Part shown: piece after piece, positions 26,318 to 37,726 of the stretch | Layout: each line of letters opens with the position of its first letter | How positions within the stretch are numbered: the first letter of the stretch is position 1 | Source: Parcubacteria group bacterium | GTDB taxonomy: Bacteria > Patescibacteriota > Microgenomatia > UBA1400 > PJMF01 | DNA: 44,151 nucleotides | Direction: 5' to 3' | Assembly (NCBI GenBank): GCA_943350175.1 | Contig: CALQZX010000007.1 | Location: forward strand, 1 to 44,151 | Program-made: the position numbers and the translations under genes | Notes under the pieces: generated by a model | Database searches by the model: none | Seen by the model: only the letters and a program-made list of their open reading frames with translations | Told to the model about the DNA's origin: nothing

Positions 26318-26704
26318 ATGAAAAAAATTATCGTATTGATTCTACTTGTGGCTTTAGTTCCTGCATATCTTTTTTATCAAAAAAATAATGCAAAAGTAGA
26401 AGAACCAGCTAAAGAAATGGTCCAAGAAACCACACCATCTCCAGTAGCGACAATGTACTCAATTGCTGACGTTGAGAAACACAGCACTAAGGAAGATTGC
26501 TGGCTAGCTATCGAAGGTAAAGTTTATGATGTTACCAAAGTTACAACGAGTGGCAAACATCCAGGCGGAGAAGCTATCCTAGAAGGTTGCGGCAAAGACG
26601 CTACCGTTCTATTTAACACTCGTCCAATGGGTTCTGGAACTTCACATTCTGATAAGGCTCGCAGCAGTCTAGCTAACTTCATAATTGGCGATTTATCAAA
26701 GTAA
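26318..26704 (+). CDS. Membrane-anchored cytochrome b5-like heme/steroid-binding domain protein
   Basis: N-terminal hydrophobic anchor; KHSTKEDCWLAIEGKVYDVT, HPGG, GKDAT, HS...A, IGDL. Confidence 0.92.
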   Translation: MKKIIVLILLVALVPAYLFYQKNNAKVEEPAKEMVQETTPSPVATMYSIADVEKHSTKEDCWLAIEGKVYDVTKVTTSGKHPGGEAILEGCGKDATVLFNTRPMGSGTSHSDKARSSLANFIIGDLSK

Positions 26705-26722
26705 ATTTAATCACATCTCATC

Positions 26723-26766
26723 TTGAAATTTCATGACATATAGACTATCATCTATATGTCATGAAA
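26723..26766 (+). promoter_or_regulatory. Promoter plus perfect 16-6-16 inverted-repeat operator of the ArsR-suf-mnmA operon
   Basis: TTGAAA (26723-26728), 17 nt, TATCAT (26746-26751); TTTCATGACATATAGA (26729-26744) is the exact reverse complement of TCTATATGTCATGAAA (26751-26766). Confidence 0.85.
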
Positions 26767-27042
26767 GCCTCTAATTGCAGTCATTGTTTTAGTAACTTAG
26801 CCGTCGATTCACGCATGAAAATATTCCTTTTCTTAAAAGAAAATGGATCTAAAATTGTTTCAGAAGTTGTTAAAGAGACTTCTCTAAGCCAGCCAACTAT
26901 TTCCTATCATTTAAAGAATATGGAAAAGTCTGGTCTTCTATCAAAAAAACGAATTGGTAAAGAAATTTACTATGAAGTAAACAACAGTTGTCCGGAAAGT
27001 CACGAAATTTGTGTTTTTAAACAAATGAATTTCACTAATTAA
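26761..27042 (+). CDS. ArsR/SmtB-family winged-HTH transcriptional regulator with 4 Cys
   Basis: FSNLAVDSRMKI, LSQPTISYHLKNM, GLL, RIGKEIYY; Cys6, Cys9, Cys77, Cys84. Confidence 0.9.
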   Translation: MKASNCSHCFSNLAVDSRMKIFLFLKENGSKIVSEVVKETSLSQPTISYHLKNMEKSGLLSKKRIGKEIYYEVNNSCPESHEICVFKQMNFTN

Positions 27043-27056
27043 TTTTTCAATAAGGA

Positions 27057-27794
27057 ATGTCTGTGCTTAAAATAAAAAATCTTCAAGTTTCATTAAATAA
27101 AAAAAATATTTTAGATAAAATTGATTTATCGATTAAAAACGGTGAGACACATATCTTGATGGGTCAGAATGGTGCTGGCAAAAGTACTTTGGCACAAAGC
27201 ATCATGGGCAATCCAAATTACTCAGTTAAAGGTGAAATTTCTTTTGACACTCACAGCTTATTGGAGCTGGATCCACAGCAAAGAGCCGCTCTTGGAATAT
27301 TTTTATCTTTCCAACAAATCTTAGAAATTCCTGGAGTAAAAATTTATGACTATTTGAAATTACTGCATAAGAAAAGTCATGAAAAAAAACTAACTCCAAT
27401 GAAGTTTAAAGCATTTTTGAAAGAAAGAATGGAAATATTAAGTTTTAATGAGGAGTTTCTGAAACGCTCTCTAAATCATGGTTTTTCTGGTGGTGAAAAG
27501 AAGAAAATGGAAGTTTTGCAAATGTTGGTTTTAGAGCCAAAGCTAATCATTTTAGATGAGATAGATAGTGGTTTGGACATTGATGCGATTGAAGCAGTGG
27601 CTAAGGCAGTCAATTTTCTTAAAAAAGAGAAAAAGAGCTCAGTTTTATTGATTACTCATTATTCAAGAATTTTAAATTTCCTGAGCGTAGATCATGTTCA
27701 CTTGTTGAGTAAAGGAAAAATTGTTAAAGATGGTGATGGATTATTAGTTAAGCAAATTGAAGCAAAAGGTTTTGCTGCTTTCCTCAAAGAATAA
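27057..27794 (+). CDS. sufC: Fe-S cluster assembly ATPase SufC
   Basis: MGQNGAGKSTL, GIFLSFQ, GFSGGEKKK, LDEIDSGLDIDA, ITHY. Confidence 0.97.
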   Translation: MSVLKIKNLQVSLNKKNILDKIDLSIKNGETHILMGQNGAGKSTLAQSIMGNPNYSVKGEISFDTHSLLELDPQQRAALGIFLSFQQILEIPGVKIYDYLKLLHKKSHEKKLTPMKFKAFLKERMEILSFNEEFLKRSLNHGFSGGEKKKMEVLQMLVLEPKLIILDEIDSGLDIDAIEAVAKAVNFLKKEKKSSVLLITHYSRILNFLSVDHVHLLSKGKIVKDGDGLLVKQIEAKGFAAFLKE

Positions 27795-27796
27795 AT

Positions 27797-29206
27797 ATGC
27801 GCCAACCAAGCTTAAAAAAACTCAATGATGCTTATGCTGAAAAATTTGGTTTTTCTATGCCAGAGAAGTCAGTTTTGAGTTTTGATTTTGGCCTTTCAGA
27901 AAAAGTAATTGAAGATATTTCCAACTCCAAGAAAGAACCTAAATGGATGAAGGATTTCCGTTTAGAATCACTACAAATTTTTCGTCAAAAACCAATGCCA
28001 ACATGGGGGCCAAGTTTGGAGGAAATTGATTTTGAACAAATTCGTTATTTTATTAAAGATACTGATGTAGAAAAGAAAACCTGGGATGAAGTGCCAAAAG
28101 AAATCAAAGATACTTTTGATCGCTTGGGAGTTCTTCAGGCAGAAAGAGAATTTTTGGCTGGAGTGAAGGCTCAATATAACAGTGAAGTGGCTTATTCTTC
28201 TTTGCAAGCAGAGTTAGACGAACAAGGAGTGATTTTTTGTTCTATGGAAGAGGCTTTGCAAAAGCACTCAGATCTTTTTAAAGAATATTTCGCGAAATTA
28301 ATTCCAGCTGCTGATAATAAATTTGCAGCTCTCAATAGTGCTGCTTGGTCAGGAGGTTCTTTCGTCTATATTCCGCCAAATACTCACGTCAAAAGACCTC
28401 TGCAAAGCTATTTTCGTATTAATGCCGCACGCATGGGCCAGTTTGAAAGAACTCTGATTATTGCTGATGAAGGCTCTAGCGCTCACTACGTCGAAGGATG
28501 TACGGCGCCTGTTTATAGTGAATATTCTCTGCATTCAGCAGTGGTAGAAGTTTTTGTCAAAAAAGACGCTCGTTTCCGTTACACCACAATCCAAAATTGG
28601 TCAGGCAATATTTACAATTTGGTGACTAAGCGCGCTAAGGTTTTCCAAAATGGCGTGATGGAGTGGGTCGATGGAAATCTTGGTGCCAAAATGACCATGA
28701 AATACCCAAGTTGTTATTTGGTTGAAGAAGGTGCTTACGGAGAAATGCTGTCCATTGCTTACGCCAAGAATCATCAGATTCAAGATACTGGTGCAAAAAT
28801 GTTGCATCTCGCCAAAAATACTTCATCAAAAATTATTGCCAAATCTGTGAGCATAGCCGGCGGTCAAAGTAATTATCGTGGTTTGGTATTTATTTCCAAA
28901 GCGGCTAAAAATAGTAAAAGCAAAGTTGAGTGTGACGCTCTTATTTTGGATGATCAATCAGCTACTTGTACTTATCCTGATATGAAAATTTCTGGTGAAA
29001 ACGCGGTGGTTGAGCATGAGGCAAGTGTCAGTGAAATTGAAGAAGAAAAACTTTATTATTTAATGAGTCGCGGCTTGGATAAAACTGAAGCGATGACTTT
29101 ACTCGTTGCTGGTTTCATTGAGCCAATTGTCAAGGAATTACCTTTGGAATATGCAGTTGAACTAAATCGTTTGATTGAGCTGGAAATGGAAGGGAGCGTG
29201 GGCTAA
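27797..29206 (+). CDS. sufB: Fe-S cluster assembly protein SufB
   Basis: DNKFAALNSA, GQFERTLII, YVEGCTAP, LHSAVVE, YTTIQNW, TMKYPS, ECDAL, EHEAS, LPLEYAVE. Confidence 0.98.
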   Translation: MRQPSLKKLNDAYAEKFGFSMPEKSVLSFDFGLSEKVIEDISNSKKEPKWMKDFRLESLQIFRQKPMPTWGPSLEEIDFEQIRYFIKDTDVEKKTWDEVPKEIKDTFDRLGVLQAEREFLAGVKAQYNSEVAYSSLQAELDEQGVIFCSMEEALQKHSDLFKEYFAKLIPAADNKFAALNSAAWSGGSFVYIPPNTHVKRPLQSYFRINAARMGQFERTLIIADEGSSAHYVEGCTAPVYSEYSLHSAVVEVFVKKDARFRYTTIQNWSGNIYNLVTKRAKVFQNGVMEWVDGNLGAKMTMKYPSCYLVEEGAYGEMLSIAYAKNHQIQDTGAKMLHLAKNTSSKIIAKSVSIAGGQSNYRGLVFISKAAKNSKSKVECDALILDDQSATCTYPDMKISGENAVVEHEASVSEIEEEKLYYLMSRGLDKTEAMTLLVAGFIEPIVKELPLEYAVELNRLIELEMEGSVG

Positions 29207-29793
29207 TGCAAACAGTTTTGCTTGAAAACCAAGAAAGTTTTATTTTAGAACCAGAGCAAGACACTTTGTATTTGGTTTTGCTAGATAAAGAAGCTGACCT
29301 TGGCAAAATAAAAGTTGATTTATCTTTCAATAAAAGTGAGGTTAATTGTAGATTGTTGTTTTTGGGCAGATTGAAAAGTAAAAGTAATTGGCAGATCGAA
29401 AGTAATTCGAGACATTTCGTACCAAAAACCAGTTGTCTAACTGAGTTCTATTTAAGCCAAGCTGATGAGTCGAGAGTTGATTACTTTGGCCAAATTTACA
29501 TTGGTCAAAAAGCCTCCCAAACTAAATCCTTTCTTAAGGAGCAGAGCTTGGTGCTAGGTAAAGCAGTTTTTAATAGATCTAGACCAATATTGGAAATCTT
29601 TAATAATAAAGTCAAAGCTTCTCATAGTGCCAGCAGTAGCAGAATTAGCGAGACCGATCTTTTTTACCTAATGAGTCGCGGATTTGAAAAAAATGAAGCT
29701 GAAAAAATCTTAGAAGAGGCTTTTTTTAATAAAGTTTTTGATTCTGTTAAAGTAGAGGAAGCACGCGAGTTAATTAAAGGTTATCTATGTTAG
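29206..29793 (+). CDS. sufD: Short SufD-family protein (C-terminal SufBD domain)
   Basis: PILEI...VKASHSA, LFYLMSRG; between sufB and sufS. Confidence 0.88.
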   Translation: MQTVLLENQESFILEPEQDTLYLVLLDKEADLGKIKVDLSFNKSEVNCRLLFLGRLKSKSNWQIESNSRHFVPKTSCLTEFYLSQADESRVDYFGQIYIGQKASQTKSFLKEQSLVLGKAVFNRSRPILEIFNNKVKASHSASSSRISETDLFYLMSRGFEKNEAEKILEEAFFNKVFDSVKVEEARELIKGYLC

Positions 29794-31001
29794 ATACTCT
29801 GAAAATAAAAGCTGATTTTCCTATATTTAAAAATCATTCTGATTTAATTTATTTGGATAACGCAGCCACTAGTCAAAAACCACAATCAGTAATCGATAGA
29901 ATTACGAAATTTTATAGTAGTGAAAACGCCAATGTTCACCGTGGCGTTTATCCTCTTAGTGAACAAGCCAGTGAAGCTTATGATTTGGCAAGAAAAAAAG
30001 TTGCTGATTTCATTAATGCCAAAAGTGCCAAAGAAATAATTTTTACCAAAGGAACTACTGACTCTCTTAATTTAGCAGCAGCTAGTTATGGCTTGGATAA
30101 TTTAAAGCCAGATGATGAAGTTTTAATGAGCGATTTTGAACATCATAGTAATTTCTTGCCATGGAAGAATGTTTGTGAAAAAACTGGAGCCACTTTAAAA
30201 ATTTTAAACAGTGATGACGACGGCTCAATTAATCAAAAAGAATGGCAAAGCAAACTTAATAAAAAAACCAAAATAGTAGCCATCGCTCACGCTTCAAACG
30301 TTTTGGGTACTATAAATGATATTAAAGAAATTTCTGCAATAGTTCACGAAGTTGGAGCTGTTTTAGTGGTTGATGGTGCACAAGCCATTCCACATTTACA
30401 AATTAATGTGCAAGATTTAGATTGTGATTTCTACGCTTTTTCCGGACATAAAATGTTAGCCCCAATGGGAATTGGTGTTCTCTATGTTAAAGAAGAAATT
30501 TTATCAAAAATGTTTCCATATCAATTGGGCGGCGGGATGATCGAATCAGTTTCTTTGGATGAAGTCGTTTATGCAGAATATCCAGAAAAGTTTGAAGCAG
30601 GTACGCCAAATGTGGCAGGAGCAATTGCTCTAGTCAGTGCCATAGACTACTTATCAAAAATTGGCTTATCAGAAATTAGAAGCCATGAAATTGAATTAAG
30701 TGAATACCTATTGGATGGTCTTGCCAAAATTAAAAAAGTTAAGCTTTTAGGTTCGGCAGCGCCGTCACAAAGAACAGGACTAGTTTCATTTTCTGTAGAA
30801 GGAATTCATGCTCACGACCTAAGTGATTATTTGGCAAAACAAGGCTTAGCACTTAGAGCTGGTTTTCACTGTGCTCAGCCACTTCATCAAAGTCGTAACT
30901 GTGGAGCGACTTTAAGAGCTTCTTATTATTTGTATAATAGTGAAAAAGATTTGGAAGTATTGCTTAACAATTTAGAAAAAGCGATTAGTTACTATGGATG
31001 A
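29787..31001 (+). CDS. sufS: Cysteine desulfurase, SufS type (group II)
   Basis: YLDNAATSQKP, NVHRG, EHHSN, DGAQ, FSGHKM, FEAGTPN, RAGFHCAQP. Confidence 0.97.
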   Translation: MLDTLKIKADFPIFKNHSDLIYLDNAATSQKPQSVIDRITKFYSSENANVHRGVYPLSEQASEAYDLARKKVADFINAKSAKEIIFTKGTTDSLNLAAASYGLDNLKPDDEVLMSDFEHHSNFLPWKNVCEKTGATLKILNSDDDGSINQKEWQSKLNKKTKIVAIAHASNVLGTINDIKEISAIVHEVGAVLVVDGAQAIPHLQINVQDLDCDFYAFSGHKMLAPMGIGVLYVKEEILSKMFPYQLGGGMIESVSLDEVVYAEYPEKFEAGTPNVAGAIALVSAIDYLSKIGLSEIRSHEIELSEYLLDGLAKIKKVKLLGSAAPSQRTGLVSFSVEGIHAHDLSDYLAKQGLALRAGFHCAQPLHQSRNCGATLRASYYLYNSEKDLEVLLNNLEKAISYYG

Positions 31002-31365
31002 TCTTTACCGCAGCGAACTAATGGAAATTTATAAAGACCCTACTCACAAGGGCGATCTTGCTAGTCCATCTATATCACTTGAAAAGCAAAATGCTTTTTG
31101 TGGCGATCGTCTTCATTTAACTTTAAAAATAAAAAATAATATTATTGAAGATGCCAAATTTAACGGAGAAATGTGTTTCGTCAGTATTATTGGTGCAGAT
31201 TTTTTGCTGGAAGAAATTATTGGTAAAACCATTGAACAAGCCAAAAAAATTGATCAAGCTAAATTATTGGAATTAATCGATCTGAATCTTAGTACAAGTC
31301 GCATTGCTTGCGCGACTTTGACTCTCAAAGCTTTGCAAGAAGCACTGGCTAAATATGCAAAATAA
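30994..31365 (+). CDS. sufU: SufU/NifU-N-family scaffold or sulfur-transfer protein
   Basis: NAFCGD, second Cys in GEMCF, SRIACA; overlaps sufS. Confidence 0.88.
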   Translation: MDDLYRSELMEIYKDPTHKGDLASPSISLEKQNAFCGDRLHLTLKIKNNIIEDAKFNGEMCFVSIIGADFLLEEIIGKTIEQAKKIDQAKLLELIDLNLSTSRIACATLTLKALQEALAKYAK

Positions 31366-31597
31366 TCAAATTGGTAAAGAAACCAGCATTGAAGAGTTGG
31401 TCGAATTGGATCCAGAAATGAATGATGTTCTTTATGAATATGGATTGCACTGTGGCAATTGCTTTGCTGCTGGATTTGATACCTTAGAAGAAGGAGCGAA
31501 GATGCATGGTTTGGAAGACGATGAGATTGAAGAATTGATTCAAGAATTAAACAAAAAAGCAGAGTCTAAAAAAGTTGCAGATCCTTCTATCAAATAA
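31355..31597 (+). CDS. DUF1858-like small CxxC protein
   Basis: SIEELV...P...VL..YGLHCGNCFAAGFDTLEEGAKMHG pattern. Confidence 0.82.
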   Translation: MQNNQIGKETSIEELVELDPEMNDVLYEYGLHCGNCFAAGFDTLEEGAKMHGLEDDEIEELIQELNKKAESKKVADPSIK

Positions 31598-31602
31598 TTT
31601 TT

Positions 31603-32736
31603 ATGAAAAAAGTTTATTTGGATCACGCTGCGACCACTTTTGTTAAACCAGAGGTTTTAGAGGAAATGCTGCCTTATTTTTCTCAATTTTATGGCAACGC
31701 ATCTTCTGTTTATGATTTGGGAAGAACTAGTAAAAAAGCTATTGAATCAGCAAGAGAAAAAATTGCTGAAATTTTTGGCGCCCAACCGAAAGAAATATTT
31801 TTTACTGGCTCTGGAACAGAAGCAGATAATTGGGCGATTAAAGGTTTGGCTTTGGCCAACCAAGATAAAGGCAAACACATTATTACTTCCAGCATAGAAC
31901 ACCACGCCGTACTTCACAGTTGTCAGTTTTTGGAAAGAAATGGTTTTGAAGTGACTTATTTGCCAGTTAATAATGGTGGCTTAGTGAGCGTGGAAGATTT
32001 GGAGAAATCAATTAGAAAAGATACTATTTTGATTTCCATAATGTTTGCCAACAATGAAATAGGCACTATTCAACCAATCGCAAAATTAGCTCAAATAGCC
32101 AAAAAAAATAATATTATTTTTCATACAGACAGCGTGCAAGCAGTAGCTAATTTGAAAATTAACGTTGAAGAGCTCGGCATCGATGCGATGTCTTTTTCTT
32201 CTCATAAATTTTACGGGCCAAAAGGTGTTGGTGGCTTGTATTTAAAAAATGGAATACAAATAGAAAACTTGTTACACGGTGGCAGTCAGGAACGTGAGAT
32301 GCGTTCTGGAACTGAGAATGTTGCCGGGATTGTGGGAATGACTAAAGCTTTAGAGTTGGCGATGCAAAATTTTGAAAGTCGTCAAGAAAAAATGACTAGT
32401 TTGCGTGATCAAGCTATTTCAGAAATTTCAAAAATAACCAAAACAGCAAAACTAAACGGTCATAGAGAAAAAAGATTGCCTGGAAATGTTAATTTTTCTT
32501 TTCAAGAAATTGAAGGGGATTCGCTGCTAATGAATTTAGATATGAAAGGCATTGCAGCTTCTAGTGGTTCAGCTTGTAGCTCTTTGTCAATTGAGCCGTC
32601 ACATGTTTTATTGGCGATTGGACTAGATAAAAAATCAGCTAAAGGTTCGCTGCGTATAACTTTTGGTGATGAAAATACGCAGGAAGATTTGGACTATTTA
32701 ATAGTCACTTTGAGAGAAATTTTTAAGAATCTATGA
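31603..32736 (+). CDS. iscS: Cysteine desulfurase, NifS/IscS type (group I)
   Basis: [50 protein letters not shown]. Confidence 0.93.
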
Positions 32737-33794
32737 AGAAAAAAGTAATGATTGGCATGAGCGGTGGTGTTGATAGCTCTGTGGCAGCGGCTTTGCTAAA
32801 AGAGCAAGGCTACGATGTTTATGGTGTCACCATGCAAATTTGGCAGGATGATAAAAAAGACGAAAATGGCTCCTGTTGTTCGTTGTCAGCCGTTGATGAT
32901 GCTCGTCGCGTAGCTAATAAACTAGATATTCCTTATTACGTTTTAAACTTCAAAGAAATTTTTGATGAAAAAGTAATTCAATATTTTACTGATGAATACT
33001 TGCGAGGCAAAACACCAAACCCATGTATTGCTTGTAATCGTTATATTAAATTTGATGAGTTTTTGAAAAAGGCATTATCAATGGGCATGGATTATATTTC
33101 TACCGGCCACTATGCCAAAGTAGAAAAAGTTGATGATCGTTACTTACTAAAAAGATCAATGAGTTTAGCCAAAGATCAAACCTATCCTCTTTATAATTTA
33201 ACTCAAGACCAACTCTCTCATGTTTTGTTTCCATTATGGAGCTACGAAAAAACTGAAATTAGAAAAATTGCCGCTGACTTGGGACTTGGAGTAGCTAGCA
33301 AGCCTGATAGCCAAGATATTTGCTTTGTCTCAAATCATGATTATTCTGCCTTTATTGAAGAAAAAACTGGCATAAAAATGGAGCCTGGAAATTTCGTTGA
33401 TAAATCAGGCAATATCCTTGGAAAACATCGCGGTCTTTACCATTATACAATCGGTCAGCGCAAGGGACTTGGTGTGGCTTTTGGCAAGCCAGTTTTTGTG
33501 GCCCGCATAGATGTGGAGAAAAACGAAATAGTTATTGGTGATGAGGCAGATATTTTATCTGATAGTCTCATTGCTACGGACTTAAATTTTATTGCCATAG
33601 ATAAATTAAAAGAGCCAATGCAGGTTAGTGTGAAAATTAGATACGGTACAAAAGAAGTGTCAGCAGAAATTTTTCCAACAGGAGAAGACGAGGTAAAAGT
33701 AGTTTTTGAGGAACCACAAAGAGCTGTTACATCAGGACAATCTGTGGTTTTTTACAAAGATGATTTGATTTTAGGTGGTGGCGTTATAGCATAA
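32733..33794 (+). CDS. mnmA: tRNA 2-thiouridine(34) synthase MnmA, CxxC+C type
   Basis: PP-loop [48 protein letters not shown]. Confidence 0.98.
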
Positions 33795-33816: not shown

Positions 33817-35187
33817 ATGCTGATAGACGATGTATTGGCTATATCGCCAATTGACGGTCGCTACAAAAAAAAGACAAGCTCACTTCGCACCCATTTTTCC
33901 GAAGCCGCTTTAATTTCTTATAGAATCAAAATTGAACTTTTATATTTAAGAACTTTGTCTAAATATAAAATTGTTCGTCCATTTGCCAAAAAAGAGCTGA
34001 ACATTTTTTCCAAACTAGAAGAATTTGATGAGGCTGCTGTTGGTAGAGTCAAAGAAATAGAAAAGATTACTCATCATGATGTGAAGGCAGTTGAGTATTA
34101 TTTACGAGAACAGTTTATCGCAAATAAAATGGACGATTTGTCTCCTTTTATTCATTTTGCCATCACTTCTGAGGATATTAATAATTTAGCTTACAGATCG
34201 ATGCTATCGACAGGACTCACGGCTGAAATTGTGCCGAGCACAATGGAAGTTTTACGAGAACTGGCAGTTTTAACTGATAAATACAGTGCTTTACCAATTT
34301 TAGCTAGAACTCATGGTCAGGCAGCAATTCCCACTACTTTTGGTAAGGAATTTGCAGTTTTTGCAGAGCGTATTTTGTTTATTTTAGAAGAACTAGAAGA
34401 TTTTAAGTTGCATGGCAAATTTAATGGGGCGGTTGGTGGTTATCAGGCAATGCAATCGGCTTATCCGAGCCTTAATTGGCCGAAATTCAGTCAAGAATTA
34501 GTAGAAAGCTTGGGTTTTAGTTTTGTTGCTGTGTCCACCCAAATTTGTCCAGCTGACGACCTGGTGAAATTATTTTCTATTTTTTATCGTCTAAACGGTG
34601 TTTTACTAGATTTGAATCAGGATTTATGGCGCTACATAAGTGATGGCTGGTTATCGCAAAAAGGCAAAGAAAAATTTGTTGGTTCTTCTACGATGCCACA
34701 AAAAATTAATCCGATCGAATTTGAGAATTCAGAAGGTAATCTAATTATGGCTAACGCCTTATTTGAAGGCATGATGCGCAAGTTGCCAATTAGTCGTTTG
34801 CAAAGAGATCTTTCAGAAAGCACGGTACTGCGCAATATTGGTAGTGTTTTTGCTTACTGCTTTATAGCTTATGAAAGTTTGAGTGGCGGCTTGTCGAAGT
34901 TAGTGGCCAATGAAAAAGCAATTAATCAAGATTTACATGCTAACTACAATATTTTGGCTGAAGGCTGGCAAACTCTAGCCAGAAAAAGTGGCGACCAAGA
35001 GGCTTACGAGAAAGTTGCTAAACTTCTCAAAAATAAAATTGTTAGTAAGCAAGATTGGCAAGTTTTGACCAAAAAAGAAGATCAGCAAATTCAAAATTTG
35101 AGTCCAGAAAATTATTTAGGTTTATCGATCCAATTAAGCAAGGACACCGTCAAAAAAGTTAATAATTTTTTAAAGAAAGGGCTTTAG
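33817..35187 (+). CDS. purB: Adenylosuccinate lyase
   Basis: AISPIDGRY, HDVKAVEY, TSEDIN, RTHGQ, GSSTMPQKINPIEFENSEGN, SRLQRDL. Confidence 0.97.
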   Translation: MLIDDVLAISPIDGRYKKKTSSLRTHFSEAALISYRIKIELLYLRTLSKYKIVRPFAKKELNIFSKLEEFDEAAVGRVKEIEKITHHDVKAVEYYLREQFIANKMDDLSPFIHFAITSEDINNLAYRSMLSTGLTAEIVPSTMEVLRELAVLTDKYSALPILARTHGQAAIPTTFGKEFAVFAERILFILEELEDFKLHGKFNGAVGGYQAMQSAYPSLNWPKFSQELVESLGFSFVAVSTQICPADDLVKLFSIFYRLNGVLLDLNQDLWRYISDGWLSQKGKEKFVGSSTMPQKINPIEFENSEGNLIMANALFEGMMRKLPISRLQRDLSESTVLRNIGSVFAYCFIAYESLSGGLSKLVANEKAINQDLHANYNILAEGWQTLARKSGDQEAYEKVAKLLKNKIVSKQDWQVLTKKEDQQIQNLSPENYLGLSIQLSKDTVKKVNNFLKKGL

Positions 35188-35189
35188 CC

Positions 35190-36641
35190 GTGAATAATTT
35201 CTTAAAAATAAAAAAAGCTGTTTATGAAGACGGCAAACTTTTTGGAGTTGATCAAAAATTAACTGAAAATCCTTTTTTGCGAAGTGATCGTCGTGCCAAT
35301 TCTATTGCCGTACTTGGTGGTGCTTTAGGAGACGAGGGTAAAGGTCGTATTACTGATGAATTGACTTCACTTTTTCTTAAAGAACAGAAAGAAGTCTTGC
35401 ACTACAGAGATAATGGCGGGGCCAATGCCGGTCACACCATCGCTTTTGGTAACAAAAAAATAGCTTTACATCAGCTTGGTTCTGGAATTTTACAAAAAGG
35501 TTGCACGGTTGTGCTTGGTAAAGAAATGGTTTTACATCCACAAGATTTAGTTTTGGAAATCAAAGAAGTAGAAAAAGTGCTTGATGGTCAGCCAATGCCA
35601 TCTAAGCTATTGATTGATGAGATGGCTCTGCTTTGCTTGGACACTCATCGCGCTTTTGAAGCAGTGCTGAAAATGAAAGCAGACGGCAGTAAAGCTGCGA
35701 CAGGTAGAGGCATTTCTCCAGCTTATGCGGATGTGCTTTATCGCAATCCACTGCGTATGCGCGATTTGATGGCCAAAGATTGGCAAAAACGTGCGCAAGT
35801 TCACTATGAGTATTACAAAATGTTATGTTCTGGTTTTGGCTTTGAAATCGCTGAAGTAAAAGTCCCAAGATTGGATGGCTCAGCTGTTGCAACTGGTTCT
35901 TTCGCGGATTTTGTAGCCAACCTAAAAGAAGCCAAAGCAATCCTAAAACCATTCATCAAAGATGTGACTAAAGTAATTTCCAAAACCTGGGCCTCTTCTG
36001 TGCCAATGGTTTTTGAAAAAGCTCAAGCTTTGGGATTGGACATTCGCTATGGAGTTTATCCTGACATCACAGCTTCTAATTGTGCTTTTGATGGAATTTT
36101 TTCTTCTACAGAGGGTATTGTTGACGATCGCTTGCTAGCTGTTAAAGCAGCTACCATTAAAGCGACTTACACCTCTAGTGTTGGCACCAGAAATTTACCA
36201 ACCATGATGGAGAAAAAACTGGCAGAACGCATTCGTGAAGACGCCAATGAATATGGAGCTACCACCAAGAGACCACGCGATCTGGCTTACATTGATTTGC
36301 CAATGCTAACTTATTTATTTAAAGTTGGCAGAGTGGAATATTTAACTTTAACTCATTTGGATATTTCTTATCCAAAGGTGCCCATTAAAGTTTGTGTGGC
36401 CTATGAAATTGATGGTAAAGAAGTCGGCTATAGACCAGATCAAGAATATTTAAATAAAGTGACTGCCAAGTATGTTGAACTACCAACTTTTGACGGCATT
36501 GCTTTGGCAAAAGCAAAAAAGATGAGTGATCTGCCAAAAGAAGCTTTGCAATATTTAGCTTTCCTGAGTCAAAGCTTACAAGTGAAATTATTAATGGTGA
36601 GCGTAGGTCCAAAGAGAGATCAGACCATCAAATATTATTAA
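35190..36641 (+). CDS. purA: Adenylosuccinate synthetase (divergent)
   Basis: GDEGKG, GGANAGHT, TGRGISPAY, EYGATTKRPR, VSVGPKR. Confidence 0.93.
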   Translation: MNNFLKIKKAVYEDGKLFGVDQKLTENPFLRSDRRANSIAVLGGALGDEGKGRITDELTSLFLKEQKEVLHYRDNGGANAGHTIAFGNKKIALHQLGSGILQKGCTVVLGKEMVLHPQDLVLEIKEVEKVLDGQPMPSKLLIDEMALLCLDTHRAFEAVLKMKADGSKAATGRGISPAYADVLYRNPLRMRDLMAKDWQKRAQVHYEYYKMLCSGFGFEIAEVKVPRLDGSAVATGSFADFVANLKEAKAILKPFIKDVTKVISKTWASSVPMVFEKAQALGLDIRYGVYPDITASNCAFDGIFSSTEGIVDDRLLAVKAATIKATYTSSVGTRNLPTMMEKKLAERIREDANEYGATTKRPRDLAYIDLPMLTYLFKVGRVEYLTLTHLDISYPKVPIKVCVAYEIDGKEVGYRPDQEYLNKVTAKYVELPTFDGIALAKAKKMSDLPKEALQYLAFLSQSLQVKLLMVSVGPKRDQTIKYY

Positions 36642-36673
36642 AAATTAAATCAAAAAAATAAAGAAAGCGAACA

Positions 36674-37726
36674 ATGTCTACCACTTTTTATAAATCCCTC
36701 GGTAAAACAGAAAATTGGCCAAACCTAAGCAGCATTCACCCAGCAAGTTTAACTTATGATGATGTGTTGCTGGTTCCTCAAGCTAGAACTGAAATTAGTT
36801 CCAGAAAAGAGACTGACATCTCGGTAAAATTTGGTCCTTTTACGCTACAAAAACCAATTGTGACTGCTCCAATGGACACAGTCAGTGGAGAAGAAATGGC
36901 CAGATTAATGCATCGCTTGGGTGGTTTGACTTTTATGCCTAGAGTTTTCATCGATGAAGCTTTGGCAGCTTGCGAACGTTTGCAAAAAGATAAAATTAAT
37001 GCTGTCTACTCAATTGGCCTTAAAAATGCTTTGGCTGATGCAGAGGCCTTTAAGAAATTAGGAGCTCAAGTTTTACTTCTGGATGTTGCTCATGGCGGCA
37101 TGCAAAGTATTATCGAAGCAGCAGAAGAAATTCAGAAGAAATTAAAAATGACGGTAATCGCTGGCAACATTGTAAGTTATGATCAGGCAGAAACTTACAA
37201 AGAAGCTGGACTTAAAATTGCCAGAGTAGGCGTCGGTGGTGGTGGCATGTGCATTACTCGTTTGGTAGCTGGCGCTGGTTTCCCACAGTTATCTGCAGTT
37301 TTTGAAACAGTTGCTTCTGGATTAGAGATCATCGCTGATGGTGGTATTCGTAAGCCAGCAGATTTTGCCAAAGCCATGGCGGCTGGAGCAAGAGTAATTA
37401 TGGTTGGTTCAATGTTGGCTGGTACAGAAGAAGCTCCTGGTGAGGTAGTCGGCGGAGTCAAAAAAGCCCGTGGACAAGCCAGCGAGGATTACATGAAAGA
37501 CAACGGTTCTAAACTTGGAGAATTCCGCAGTGCTGAGGGAATTATGACGATGGTGCCATATAAAGGATCAGCAGAACACATTATCAATGACTTAGTGGGT
37601 GGACTTCGTAGTGCCATGTCCTATGTTGGTGCAAAAAATATACAAGATTTCCAAAAGAACGCTCAGTTTGTCTTAGCTTCTCCAGCAGCTCAGGGTGAAG
37701 GAGTGGCACATATTGTTGGAAGATAG
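36674..37726 (+). CDS. IMPDH/GMPR-family oxidoreductase without CBS domains, probably GMP reductase
   Basis: [50 protein letters not shown]; no RY dyad in the flap. Confidence 0.85.

Follow-up and report, generated by a model that had tools for sequence, protein, structure and literature searches.

Linkage of a cysteine desulfurase together with a scaffold for iron-sulfur (Fe-S) clusters to the gene for the tRNA 2-thiouridine synthase MnmA (TrmU) is known from clostridia; in the part of PMC2940859 that deals with Clostridium perfringens, the Rrf2-iscS-iscU-trmU genes (cpe1786-cpe1783) are described as co-induced. In this study, we analysed a stretch of 44,151 nucleotides (nt) (contig CALQZX010000007.1, positions 1 to 44,151; hereafter the window) from a Parcubacteria group bacterium of the Microgenomatia, in which nine genes encode an ArsR-type regulator, a SUF system for Fe-S cluster assembly, a protein with the domain of unknown function DUF1858, a NifS-type desulfurase and MnmA. 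We consider it likely that these genes form one tightly packed operon, probably with a single repressor-controlled promoter, which was assembled in one genus-level Microgenomatia clade from separate modules: a general SUF machine, a DUF1858 helper, a clostridia-type nifS-mnmA pair and a stress-linked ArsR regulator. The features are as follows, profile scores being given against the curated cut-off.

26723 to 26766, + strand: promoter-like site and candidate operator; -35 TTGAAA (26723-26728) and -10 TATCAT (26746-26751), overlapping a perfect 16-nt inverted repeat
26761 to 27042, + strand: ArsR/SmtB-family regulator, 93 amino acids (aa) (NF033788, 60.2 vs 55)
27057 to 27794, + strand: SufC ATPase (TIGR01978, 288.8 vs 212.8)
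27797 to 29206, + strand: SufB scaffold (TIGR01980, 668.8 vs 346.4)
29206 to 29793, + strand: short SufD-like protein, 195 aa (PF01458, 102 bits; TIGR01981, 112 vs 222)
29787 to 31001, + strand: SufS, group II cysteine desulfurase (TIGR01979, 549.8 vs 475.1; RAGFHCAQP)
30994 to 31365, + strand: SufU-type sulfur acceptor/scaffold, 123 aa (PF01592, NifU_N, 80 bits; TIGR01994, 85.2 vs 92.5)
31355 to 31597, + strand: DUF1858 protein, 80 aa (PF08984, 47.8 vs 32.2; TIGR03980, 58.1 vs 44.95)
31603 to 32736, + strand: NifS/IscS-type (group I) cysteine desulfurase, 377 aa (TIGR03402, 538.5 vs 530.75; SSGSACSS)
32733 to 33794, + strand: MnmA, tRNA 2-thiouridine(34) synthase, C-type (NF001138, 459.6 vs 284; TIGR00420, 387.5 vs 236.95)

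The locus resembles the clostridial Rrf2 (IscR/CymR-like)-iscS (nifS)-iscU (nifU)-trmU (mnmA) cluster in that an Fe-S desulfurase gene lies directly upstream of a C-type mnmA together with one regulator gene, and in that its NifS and MnmA nest among clostridial copies in both trees. Unlike the clostridial cluster, it has no IscU/NifU gene between nifS and mnmA, its only U-type protein being SufU, encoded upstream of DUF1858; its regulator is of the ArsR type rather than Rrf2, and a DUF1858 gene is present. Moreover, nifS and mnmA are attached to the end of a complete SUF operon, which, according to PMC2940859, C. perfringens does not have. The enzymes are all of known kinds, and clostridia already provide examples of a desulfurase and scaffold linked to mnmA, so that the operon is a lineage-specific variant.

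The nine open reading frames (ORFs) in the ORF listing of the window lie on the + strand in one string (26761-33794), with gaps of 14, 2 and 5 nt and overlaps of 1, 7, 8, 11 and 4 nt at their junctions. An earlier, sequence-only reading of this DNA had described nine co-oriented genes separated or overlapped by at most 14 nt, and this layout was confirmed, as was the family to which it had assigned each gene, now by Pfam and NCBIfam profiles applied with curated cut-offs. Each of the nine genes was found only once in the genome of origin (1,014,413 bases in 28 contigs, 96.09% complete, the window being contig C7), whose nearest named relatives are metagenome-assembled genomes labelled Candidatus Pacebacteria and Candidatus Microgenomatus.

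Searching for related loci with the window gave 22 loci, the six closest being L021-L026. In four of these (L021, L022, L024 and L025), sufC-B-D-S-U, DUF1858, nifS and mnmA follow in order as far as the contigs reach. L026 keeps the order without nifS, and so does genome G310 of the same genus (arsR-sufCBDSU-DUF1858-mnmA); L023 is compatible only, as its short contig starts within sufD and its matches to sufS and nifS are split. The gene order is thus kept in relatives whose proteins are 59-93% identical, indicating more than chance packing. The record of L021 (CAZIBP010000020.1), with the same operon at 86-96% protein identity, is titled 'uncultured Pseudomonadales bacterium', a label that is probably wrong.

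A gene-neighbourhood comparison across Patescibacteria had been put forward as a check on the proposed tie between Fe-S assembly and tRNA thiolation, and it spoke against a phylum-wide arrangement of this kind. We inspected 9.3 kb on each side of mnmA in one genome per family, covering 72 of about 125 families drawn from the best-scoring 150 of 263 MnmA matches (286 in another tally), together with G083, G245 and G260. The full arrangement occurred in 0/75 of these other Patescibacteria loci, and sufB lay near mnmA in a single one, on the opposite strand. Nor was it found at any of 18 sampled SUF loci of the window's family. Its occurrence is restricted to a single genus-level clade and does not characterise the Patescibacteria. 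MnmA itself was present in 263/301 Patescibacteria genomes (a tally that includes the unpublished G154) and in 56/60 other genomes of the family, among which only the proteins of G310 (69% identity) and G348 (53%) resemble that of the window. The family tallies for MnmA and SufB include the unpublished G346; no sequence of G154 or G346 was used. As a separate observation, 12/13 sampled genomes of the same class outside the window's order gave no MnmA match (E <= 1e-20), though they are 99-100% complete.

The MnmA of the window has the cysteines C48-C49, C98-I-A-C101 and C197 (in DSQDIC), and its PP-loop SGGxDS motif (GMSGGVDSS, residues 8-16) aligned with those of solved MnmA chains, in which the position of C98 is occupied by Asp in 9hlv and by Cys in 9hln. 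The CIAC and DSQDIC motifs pointed out from the sequence are therefore present, and the alignment confirmed the type: CC-CxxC-C, the C-type, not C-DxxC-C. The C-type class with its CC-CxxC-C motif was defined by Shigi et al. (2020); as stated in the part of that work concerned with Thermus thermophilus, the C-type enzyme of this bacterium is [4Fe-4S]-dependent and takes sulfur in vitro from IscS or SufS alike (PMC7025502). The window protein is like the Thermus enzyme in its CC-CxxC-C set and PP-loop, and SufS as a sulfur donor would fit a sister species that has SufS only; its nearest relatives in our sample, however, are clostridial and not from Thermus. By analogy with Thermus, we infer that the window MnmA needs a [4Fe-4S] cluster, which the SUF proteins would make.

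The origin of the nifS-mnmA pair can be traced further. Typing of MnmA in the 72 families gave 27 C-type (CxxC) and 45 D-type (DxxC) proteins, and the MnmA of four relatives of the window from its family, order or class (G083, G148, G245 and G260) is D-type; within the family, motifs were typed in G083, G310 and G348 of the 56 matching genomes. In the MnmA tree, the window clade (8 rows; support by the Shimodaira-Hasegawa-like approximate likelihood-ratio test [SH-aLRT] 100, starred) lies inside a group, also starred at 100, with 14 Clostridia, G191 and G348, while the four relatives fall in a clade (99, starred) containing all 48 D-type sequences. Forcing the window clade together with these relatives, a group defined by kinship labels but after the first tree had been seen, cost 226.5 log-likelihood units (approximately unbiased [AU] test, p-AU 0.0001). 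The tree of NifS agrees with this, as it places the window clade in a group (99, starred) with five clostridial NifS and G191. The window NifS and MnmA are 54-60% identical to clostridial proteins, and the clostridial loci have the order nifS-nifU-mnmA (L027, L029 and L030) or nifS-mnmA (L028). Because the sequences from outside the candidate phyla radiation (CPR) were chosen by similarity to the query, 'clostridia-like' is relative to that sample. Taken together, the trees support a clostridia-like origin of nifS-mnmA; being unrooted, they do not support a direction of transfer. The window clade presumably holds a cluster-dependent MnmA where its kin have a presumably cluster-free one. If so, one lineage offers a natural switch from the latter to the former, coupled to relocation into an Fe-S assembly operon.

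It might be argued that this relocation was a historical accident, in which a clostridia-type nifS-mnmA pair landed downstream of suf and the adjacency reflects nothing but shared read-through in a compact genome. The distribution, limited to one genus-level clade, agrees with this, as does the loss of NifS in L026 and G310 without disturbance of the rest. Downstream of mnmA, moreover, purB, an adenylosuccinate-synthase-like purA and an IMP dehydrogenase (IMPDH)/GMP-reductase-like gene (33817 to 37726, + strand; purB [adenylosuccinate lyase], NF006764, 524.6 vs 446) are packed just as closely (gaps of 22, 2 and 32 nt) and have no evident relation to the nine genes. Against an accident stands the fact that the incoming MnmA is of the presumably cluster-dependent type and was placed where its cofactor machinery is made, and that the gene order survived divergence down to 59-67% protein identity. 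The linkage also recurs independently, in Clostridia and in the phylum sample: co-oriented nifS together with a U-type scaffold gene lay upstream of mnmA at 6/27 C-type vs 0/45 D-type loci (Fisher p=0.0019), and co-oriented nifS within 9.5 kb upstream at 11/27 vs 7/45 (p=0.025), these p-values being descriptive because families are not fully independent. The tendency of C-type mnmA genes to sit with Fe-S assembly genes, already known as a linkage from clostridia, thus survives, and in the Patescibacteria sample a desulfurase with a scaffold stands beside mnmA only for C-type genes. An accident accordingly has some chance of being the whole explanation, though a small one, and we continue with the reading of an operon assembled from functional modules.

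The same downstream genes bear on the extent of the operon, which the sequence-only reading had called self-contained. A scan of the window found no terminator-like site between genes. The 3' limit of the operon is not confirmed, and purB, purA and the IMPDH/GMP-reductase-like gene, which lie outside any Fe-S or thiolation function, may share the transcript of mnmA; with co-directional purine genes directly behind it, the epithet is unproven. Both purB and purA follow mnmA in L021, L022, L023 and L026, and purB follows it in L024; the purB match of L025 stands 4 kb farther along, where the contig ends, with no purA seen.

How sulfur reaches MnmA is best considered beside Bacillus subtilis. Black and Dos Santos reportedly showed in 2015 that this organism uses SufS/SufU-SufBCD for clusters and YrvO-MnmA for the 2-thiouridine at tRNA position 34 (s2U34). 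The window is like B. subtilis in having two desulfurases, one of group II with SufU for clusters and a short one of group I beside mnmA, which is presumed by analogy to be the direct donor. It is unlike B. subtilis in that both modules, which in B. subtilis lie at separate loci, are in one operon and its MnmA is C-type, that of Bacillus being D-type. YrvO is described in PMC11784392 as the dedicated donor of B. subtilis MnmA, and the classification given in PMC7025502 lists Bacillus MnmA among the D-type, cluster-free enzymes. In the window, nifS overlaps mnmA by 4 nt, and this overlap and the joint clostridial affinity of the two proteins fit a dedicated sulfur donor for MnmA. G310, a single contig rated 100% complete, has one desulfurase match, SufS, which is 31% identical to the window's NifS; since the Thermus MnmA uses IscS or SufS, NifS appears to be helpful but not required. 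In the window clade, NifS, presumably translationally coupled to MnmA, is thus probably its persulfide donor, a task that SufS could take over, judging from the sister species that has no NifS. The sequence-only reading had suggested that the work is divided in this way, SufS/SufU building the clusters and the NifS-type enzyme providing the s2U sulfur, and such a division is plausible.

The SUF genes themselves are of a form common in the window's family. SufB and SufC scored above their equivalog cut-offs. The SufD-like protein passes Pfam SUFBD_core and covers positions 96-232 of the 232 in the PF01458 profile, that is, the C-terminal part of the SufBD core, yet it fails as a full-length SufD (195 aa, TIGR01981 below cut-off); short SufD-like ORFs after sufB are the norm across the family. 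The SufU protein passed NifU_N with TIGR01994 below cut-off, and its residues C36, D38, C61 and C106, which we take to be Zn ligands by comparison with B. subtilis SufU, are invariant in 15 sequences. RAGFHCAQP in the SufS translation is presumably the group II desulfurase motif. SufB is present in 49/60 other genomes of the family, at no more than 59% identity except in G310, and the order sufC-sufB-short sufD-sufS-sufU was found at 18/18 sampled SUF loci of the family, without DUF1858, nifS or mnmA. The SufS of the window clade groups with SufS of other families that have DUF1858 after sufS-sufU (SH-aLRT 91), while SufS of the window's own family forms a separate clade (SH-aLRT 93), which suggests, at less than starred support, that sufS-sufU-DUF1858 moved as a module. 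Our literature search on SufB and iron-sulfur in Patescibacteria brought up nothing relevant. In many genera of the family (e.g., G301, G309, G313, G315, G331, G333, G340, G347, G352 and G354), the SufB matches are split into at least two pieces within single open frames of 855-1415 aa, which looks like intein-type insertions.

The sequence-only reading had gone on to propose that this reduced genome encodes few Fe-S enzymes and that its SUF system may be there chiefly for the maturation of MnmA, the nine genes being a dedicated supply chain for tRNA thiolation. An inventory of the genome of origin gave a different picture. Five matches to Radical_SAM (PF04055) scored above cut-off, all five ORFs have CxxxCxxC, and a [FeFe] hydrogenase is encoded as well.

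HemW (NCBIfam, 296.9 vs 205.4)
G000:C1:78166-79980: Elp3-type radical-SAM/GNAT enzyme (TIGR01211, 478.4 vs 350)
MiaB/RimO-family methylthiotransferase (NCBIfam, 331.7 vs 251)
PflA, adjoining pyruvate formate-lyase (NCBIfam, 268.5 vs 231.75)
Fifth radical-SAM protein (no named family above cut-off)
G000:C24:1413-4164, on a short contig: group A [FeFe] hydrogenase, multi-cluster, with two ferredoxin-type motifs (438.8 vs 405.95)
NuoF-like protein beside the [FeFe] hydrogenase (below cut-off)

With only one desulfurase/scaffold/SufB set in the genome, that of the window, this SUF system must serve at least six Fe-S enzymes besides MnmA, and the description of a genome with few such enzymes does not hold. 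The sequence-only reading had itself named a wealth of other Fe-S clients as grounds for giving up its proposal, and on this point the proposal fails. We give next to no credence to a dedicated supply chain. It is true that MnmA is C-type, that mnmA closes the suf operon, a position retained in L021-L026 and G310, and that nifS-nifU is more frequent beside C-type than beside D-type mnmA genes. These facts are outweighed by the other clients, by the 18/18 family SUF loci of the same order with no mnmA beside them, by G083, which has SUF together with a D-type MnmA, by the spread of SufB in the family, by the absence of the arrangement from the other Patescibacteria loci, and by an operator in common with a superoxide dismutase (SOD) gene, described below, which points to stress control. 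In the reading that we prefer, sufC-sufB-short sufD and sufS-sufU would be the cell's general Fe-S assembly machine, supplying radical-SAM enzymes, the [FeFe] hydrogenase and MnmA alike.

Ten more ORFs with cysteine motifs were tried as Fe-S clients and rejected as Zn-ribbon or other non-Fe-S families, one being without assignment. Those set aside include aminoacyl-tRNA synthetases, a Mur ligase, UvrA, topoisomerase I, a RadA-like protein, Fpg and HNH, and neither RecQ nor a Cys-rich GroES-like ORF was counted. The latter (G000:C10:807-1376) is an ORF of 189 aa with GroES-like ends (residues 8-52 and about 150-187), an insert between them and 23 cysteines in the protein. No maturases of the hydrogenase H-cluster were found among the proteins examined, none of the five radical-SAM matches being named HydE or HydG by NCBIfam. 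The genome gave no match to MnmG and only weak GTPase-domain matches to MnmE, below cut-off. From these profiles, the C5 modification of U34 may follow an archaeal/eukaryote-style Elp3 route, with the C-type MnmA acting at C2; if so, both routes would depend on Fe-S clusters.

The DUF1858 protein had been taken as a carrier or redox partner in the supply of MnmA. An alignment of 16 SufSU-linked sequences has 12 invariant columns, which include C33 and C36 of the CxxC, D42 and H51. DUF1858 was found in 63/301 Patescibacteria genomes, and in 0/16 other sampled genomes of the window's class. We inspected the best-scoring 30 loci from the 63 positive genomes with 1.5 kb to each side. In 13/30, from six families, DUF1858 comes immediately after a co-oriented desulfurase module: sufS-sufU seven times, sufS once and nifS, alone or with a scaffold, five times. 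Three of these 13 (L141, L146 and L148) are single proteins with NifU_N followed by DUF1858; other single proteins combine DUF1858 with HesB/IscA, an A-type carrier (L163), and ScdA_N with DUF1858 (L154). The gene after DUF1858 codes for a single-cluster ferredoxin in L159, L164 and L166 and for a Ni-SOD in L167, and in L157 and L145 a neighbouring gene codes for an FNR-like FAD/NAD oxidoreductase. Mashruwala et al. (2016) report four fusions of SufT (DUF59) to DUF1858 ('S6 architecture, n = 4'; PMC4982691). The window protein is like these fusions in that they provide an independent physical link of DUF1858 to an Fe-S maturation factor, and unlike them in standing free after sufU, the fusions that we found being to NifU_N and HesB/IscA. 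The adjacency to desulfurases and the NifU_N and A-type fusions indicate that DUF1858 belongs with Fe-S assembly, not with MnmA. Of the earlier suggestion, a redox-type partner in an Fe-S context thus stands, while the tie to MnmA does not. Judging from gene contexts, DUF1858 is probably a redox or metal-handling helper of the desulfurase/scaffold module; as a small CxxC protein, it could act with SufS/SufU-type assembly, for example in a reductant relay. To our searches, no literature description of an association of DUF1858 with SufS/SufU or NifS/NifU came up.

Two other roles for DUF1858 have to be weighed. In the first, it would act with NifS and MnmA as a TusA-like sulfur relay or persulfide carrier for s2U34, rather than with SufS/SufU. 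Its gene does lie between sufU and nifS, 5 nt before the latter, it directly precedes mnmA in L026 and G310, and its CxxC is invariant. Elsewhere, in contrast, DUF1858 was near mnmA in 0/75 other Patescibacteria loci and 0/16 non-CPR mnmA loci; it follows sufS-sufU or nifS-scaffold instead, is fused to NifU_N or HesB/IscA, and the adjacent SufS groups with other DUF1858-linked SufS. We regard a sulfur relay as highly improbable. In the second, DUF1858 would serve under stress or in the repair of damaged iron centres (in a RIC/ScdA-like way or linked to the hybrid cluster protein) and, far from taking part in assembly, would have been drawn into the operon through a shared oxidative-stress regulon. 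The name of TIGR03980 refers to association with the hybrid cluster protein, and the ScdA_N protein, the Ni-SOD in L167 and the operator in common with SOD are in keeping with repair. The hybrid-cluster-protein association was not borne out here, as no PF03063 match was found in the genome of origin, the control having found the family in 5/14 genomes; and 4/5 DUF1858 fusions in our sample are to assembly scaffolds or carriers rather than to repair di-iron domains, a picture to which the SufT-DUF1858 fusions reported in PMC4982691 add. Repair therefore seems unlikely to us, and a helper of cluster assembly remains our choice.

An AlphaFold2 model of DUF1858 is a five-helix bundle (predicted local distance difference test 78.7). 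Foldseek searches of the PDB returned only the uncharacterised nuclear magnetic resonance entries 2K5E and 2K53 (probability 1.00), with none at E <= 0.001, and the ESM Atlas gave DUF1858 clusters only, all below 0.9. A SufU-DUF1858 complex predicted from two alignments scored 0.02 against a mark of 0.32, which weighs neither way. In the Bacillota sample, where DUF1858 is common (79/121 genomes), several matches have a single in-frame TGA (e.g., G434, G427, G401, G469, G399 and G443), consistent with selenocysteine (CxxU) forms; CxxU selenoprotein forms of DUF1858 appear in the list given in PMC9312934. As a tentative possibility, for which we would claim less than an even chance, DUF1858 may be an undescribed redox-active (CxxC/CxxU) component of U-type scaffold/cysteine-desulfurase modules, possibly in an electron or reductant relay of SufSU-type assembly, and a cluster-dependent MnmA may later have been recruited in this genus into the same stress-regulated operon, so that enzyme and cofactor supply would be made together. 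Its repeated adjacency and fusion make DUF1858 a testable candidate for how SUF-type assembly gets reducing equivalents.

Control of the locus is another point of comparison. Operons of suf genes are known to be under SufR, IscR or OxyR/Fur-type regulators. The present one is like them in that it begins with a repressor gene, predicted to be autoregulated, and has a putative operator across its promoter and a connection to oxidative stress. It is unlike them in its regulator, an ArsR/SmtB protein of 93 aa with four invariant cysteines (C6, C9, C77 and C84) and a predicted regulon of suf and an Fe/Mn SOD; the SufR model is absent from the 15 NCBIfam matches listed for it. The perfect 16-nt inverted repeat (26729-26744/26751-26766) shares sequence with the -10 box and extends into the arsR start codon, and position 26723, where the sequence-only reading had begun the locus, is the start of the -35 box of the promoter-like site TTGAAA-17-TATCAT. 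Upstream of arsR, the core ATATAGA-N6-TCTATAT is exact in L024 and L136 and has one mismatch in L022 and L025, and the four regulator cysteines are conserved in all of these. With at most one mismatch, the 22-nt core (C14:4178-4199 for the second copy) occurs twice in the genome of origin, compared with a mean of 0.025 in 40 shuffles; that second copy abuts the start codon of an Fe/Mn SOD gene (C14:4178-4830). G310 likewise has two, both perfect: arsR-suf is preceded by one and, at a distance of 15 nt, a SOD gene (L206:1501-2162) by the other. A palindrome common to suf and sod suggests control by oxidative or Fe-S stress rather than by tRNA demand. The four-Cys ArsR protein would thus have a two-operon regulon (suf and Fe/Mn SOD), predicted from palindromes in two species, and would repress it by binding the palindrome over the -10 box, the candidate operator, as part of an oxidative or Fe-S stress response. 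Such a small protein is a simple candidate sensor of Fe-S or oxidative stress for CPR bacteria. We consider this regulon and the association of DUF1858 with SufSU/NifSU to be the most useful products of the analysis.

Several points weigh against the operon and its history as proposed here. Co-transcription and the promoter are predictions, and tight packing alone does not prove a functional tie, given that unrelated purine genes stand in the same tight string. Cluster binding by the window MnmA is likewise predicted, and the cluster dependence of MnmA enzymes is, according to PMC11784392, still debated for Escherichia coli. For MnmA and NifS alike, the trees include from outside the CPR only the closest matches of the query, and they have no independent outgroup; the late definition of the AU-test group and the drawing of the 72 families from the best-scoring matches, both given above, belong here too. 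The grouping of SufS with DUF1858-linked modules (SH-aLRT 91-93) is under the starred level. As for DUF1858, 17/30 Patescibacteria loci have no desulfurase within 1.5 kb, and in the Bacillota control a desulfurase or scaffold lay within that distance in 0/36 loci; with many loci of this kind, DUF1858 is not an obligate Fe-S assembly factor.

In the scans of the window, predicted promoters and terminators were no more numerous than in shuffles (40 vs 38.6 and 9 vs 9.4, respectively), and of the promoters only that at 26723-26751, backed by the conserved palindrome, was used. Upstream of arsR by 56 nt lies a gene for a cytochrome b5-like heme-binding protein with a hydrophobic N-terminus (26318 to 26704, + strand; PF00173, 67.7 bits). 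A cytochrome b5-like gene is also found upstream of arsR in G310 (62% identity), and a weak paralogue lies on contig C1 of the genome of origin.

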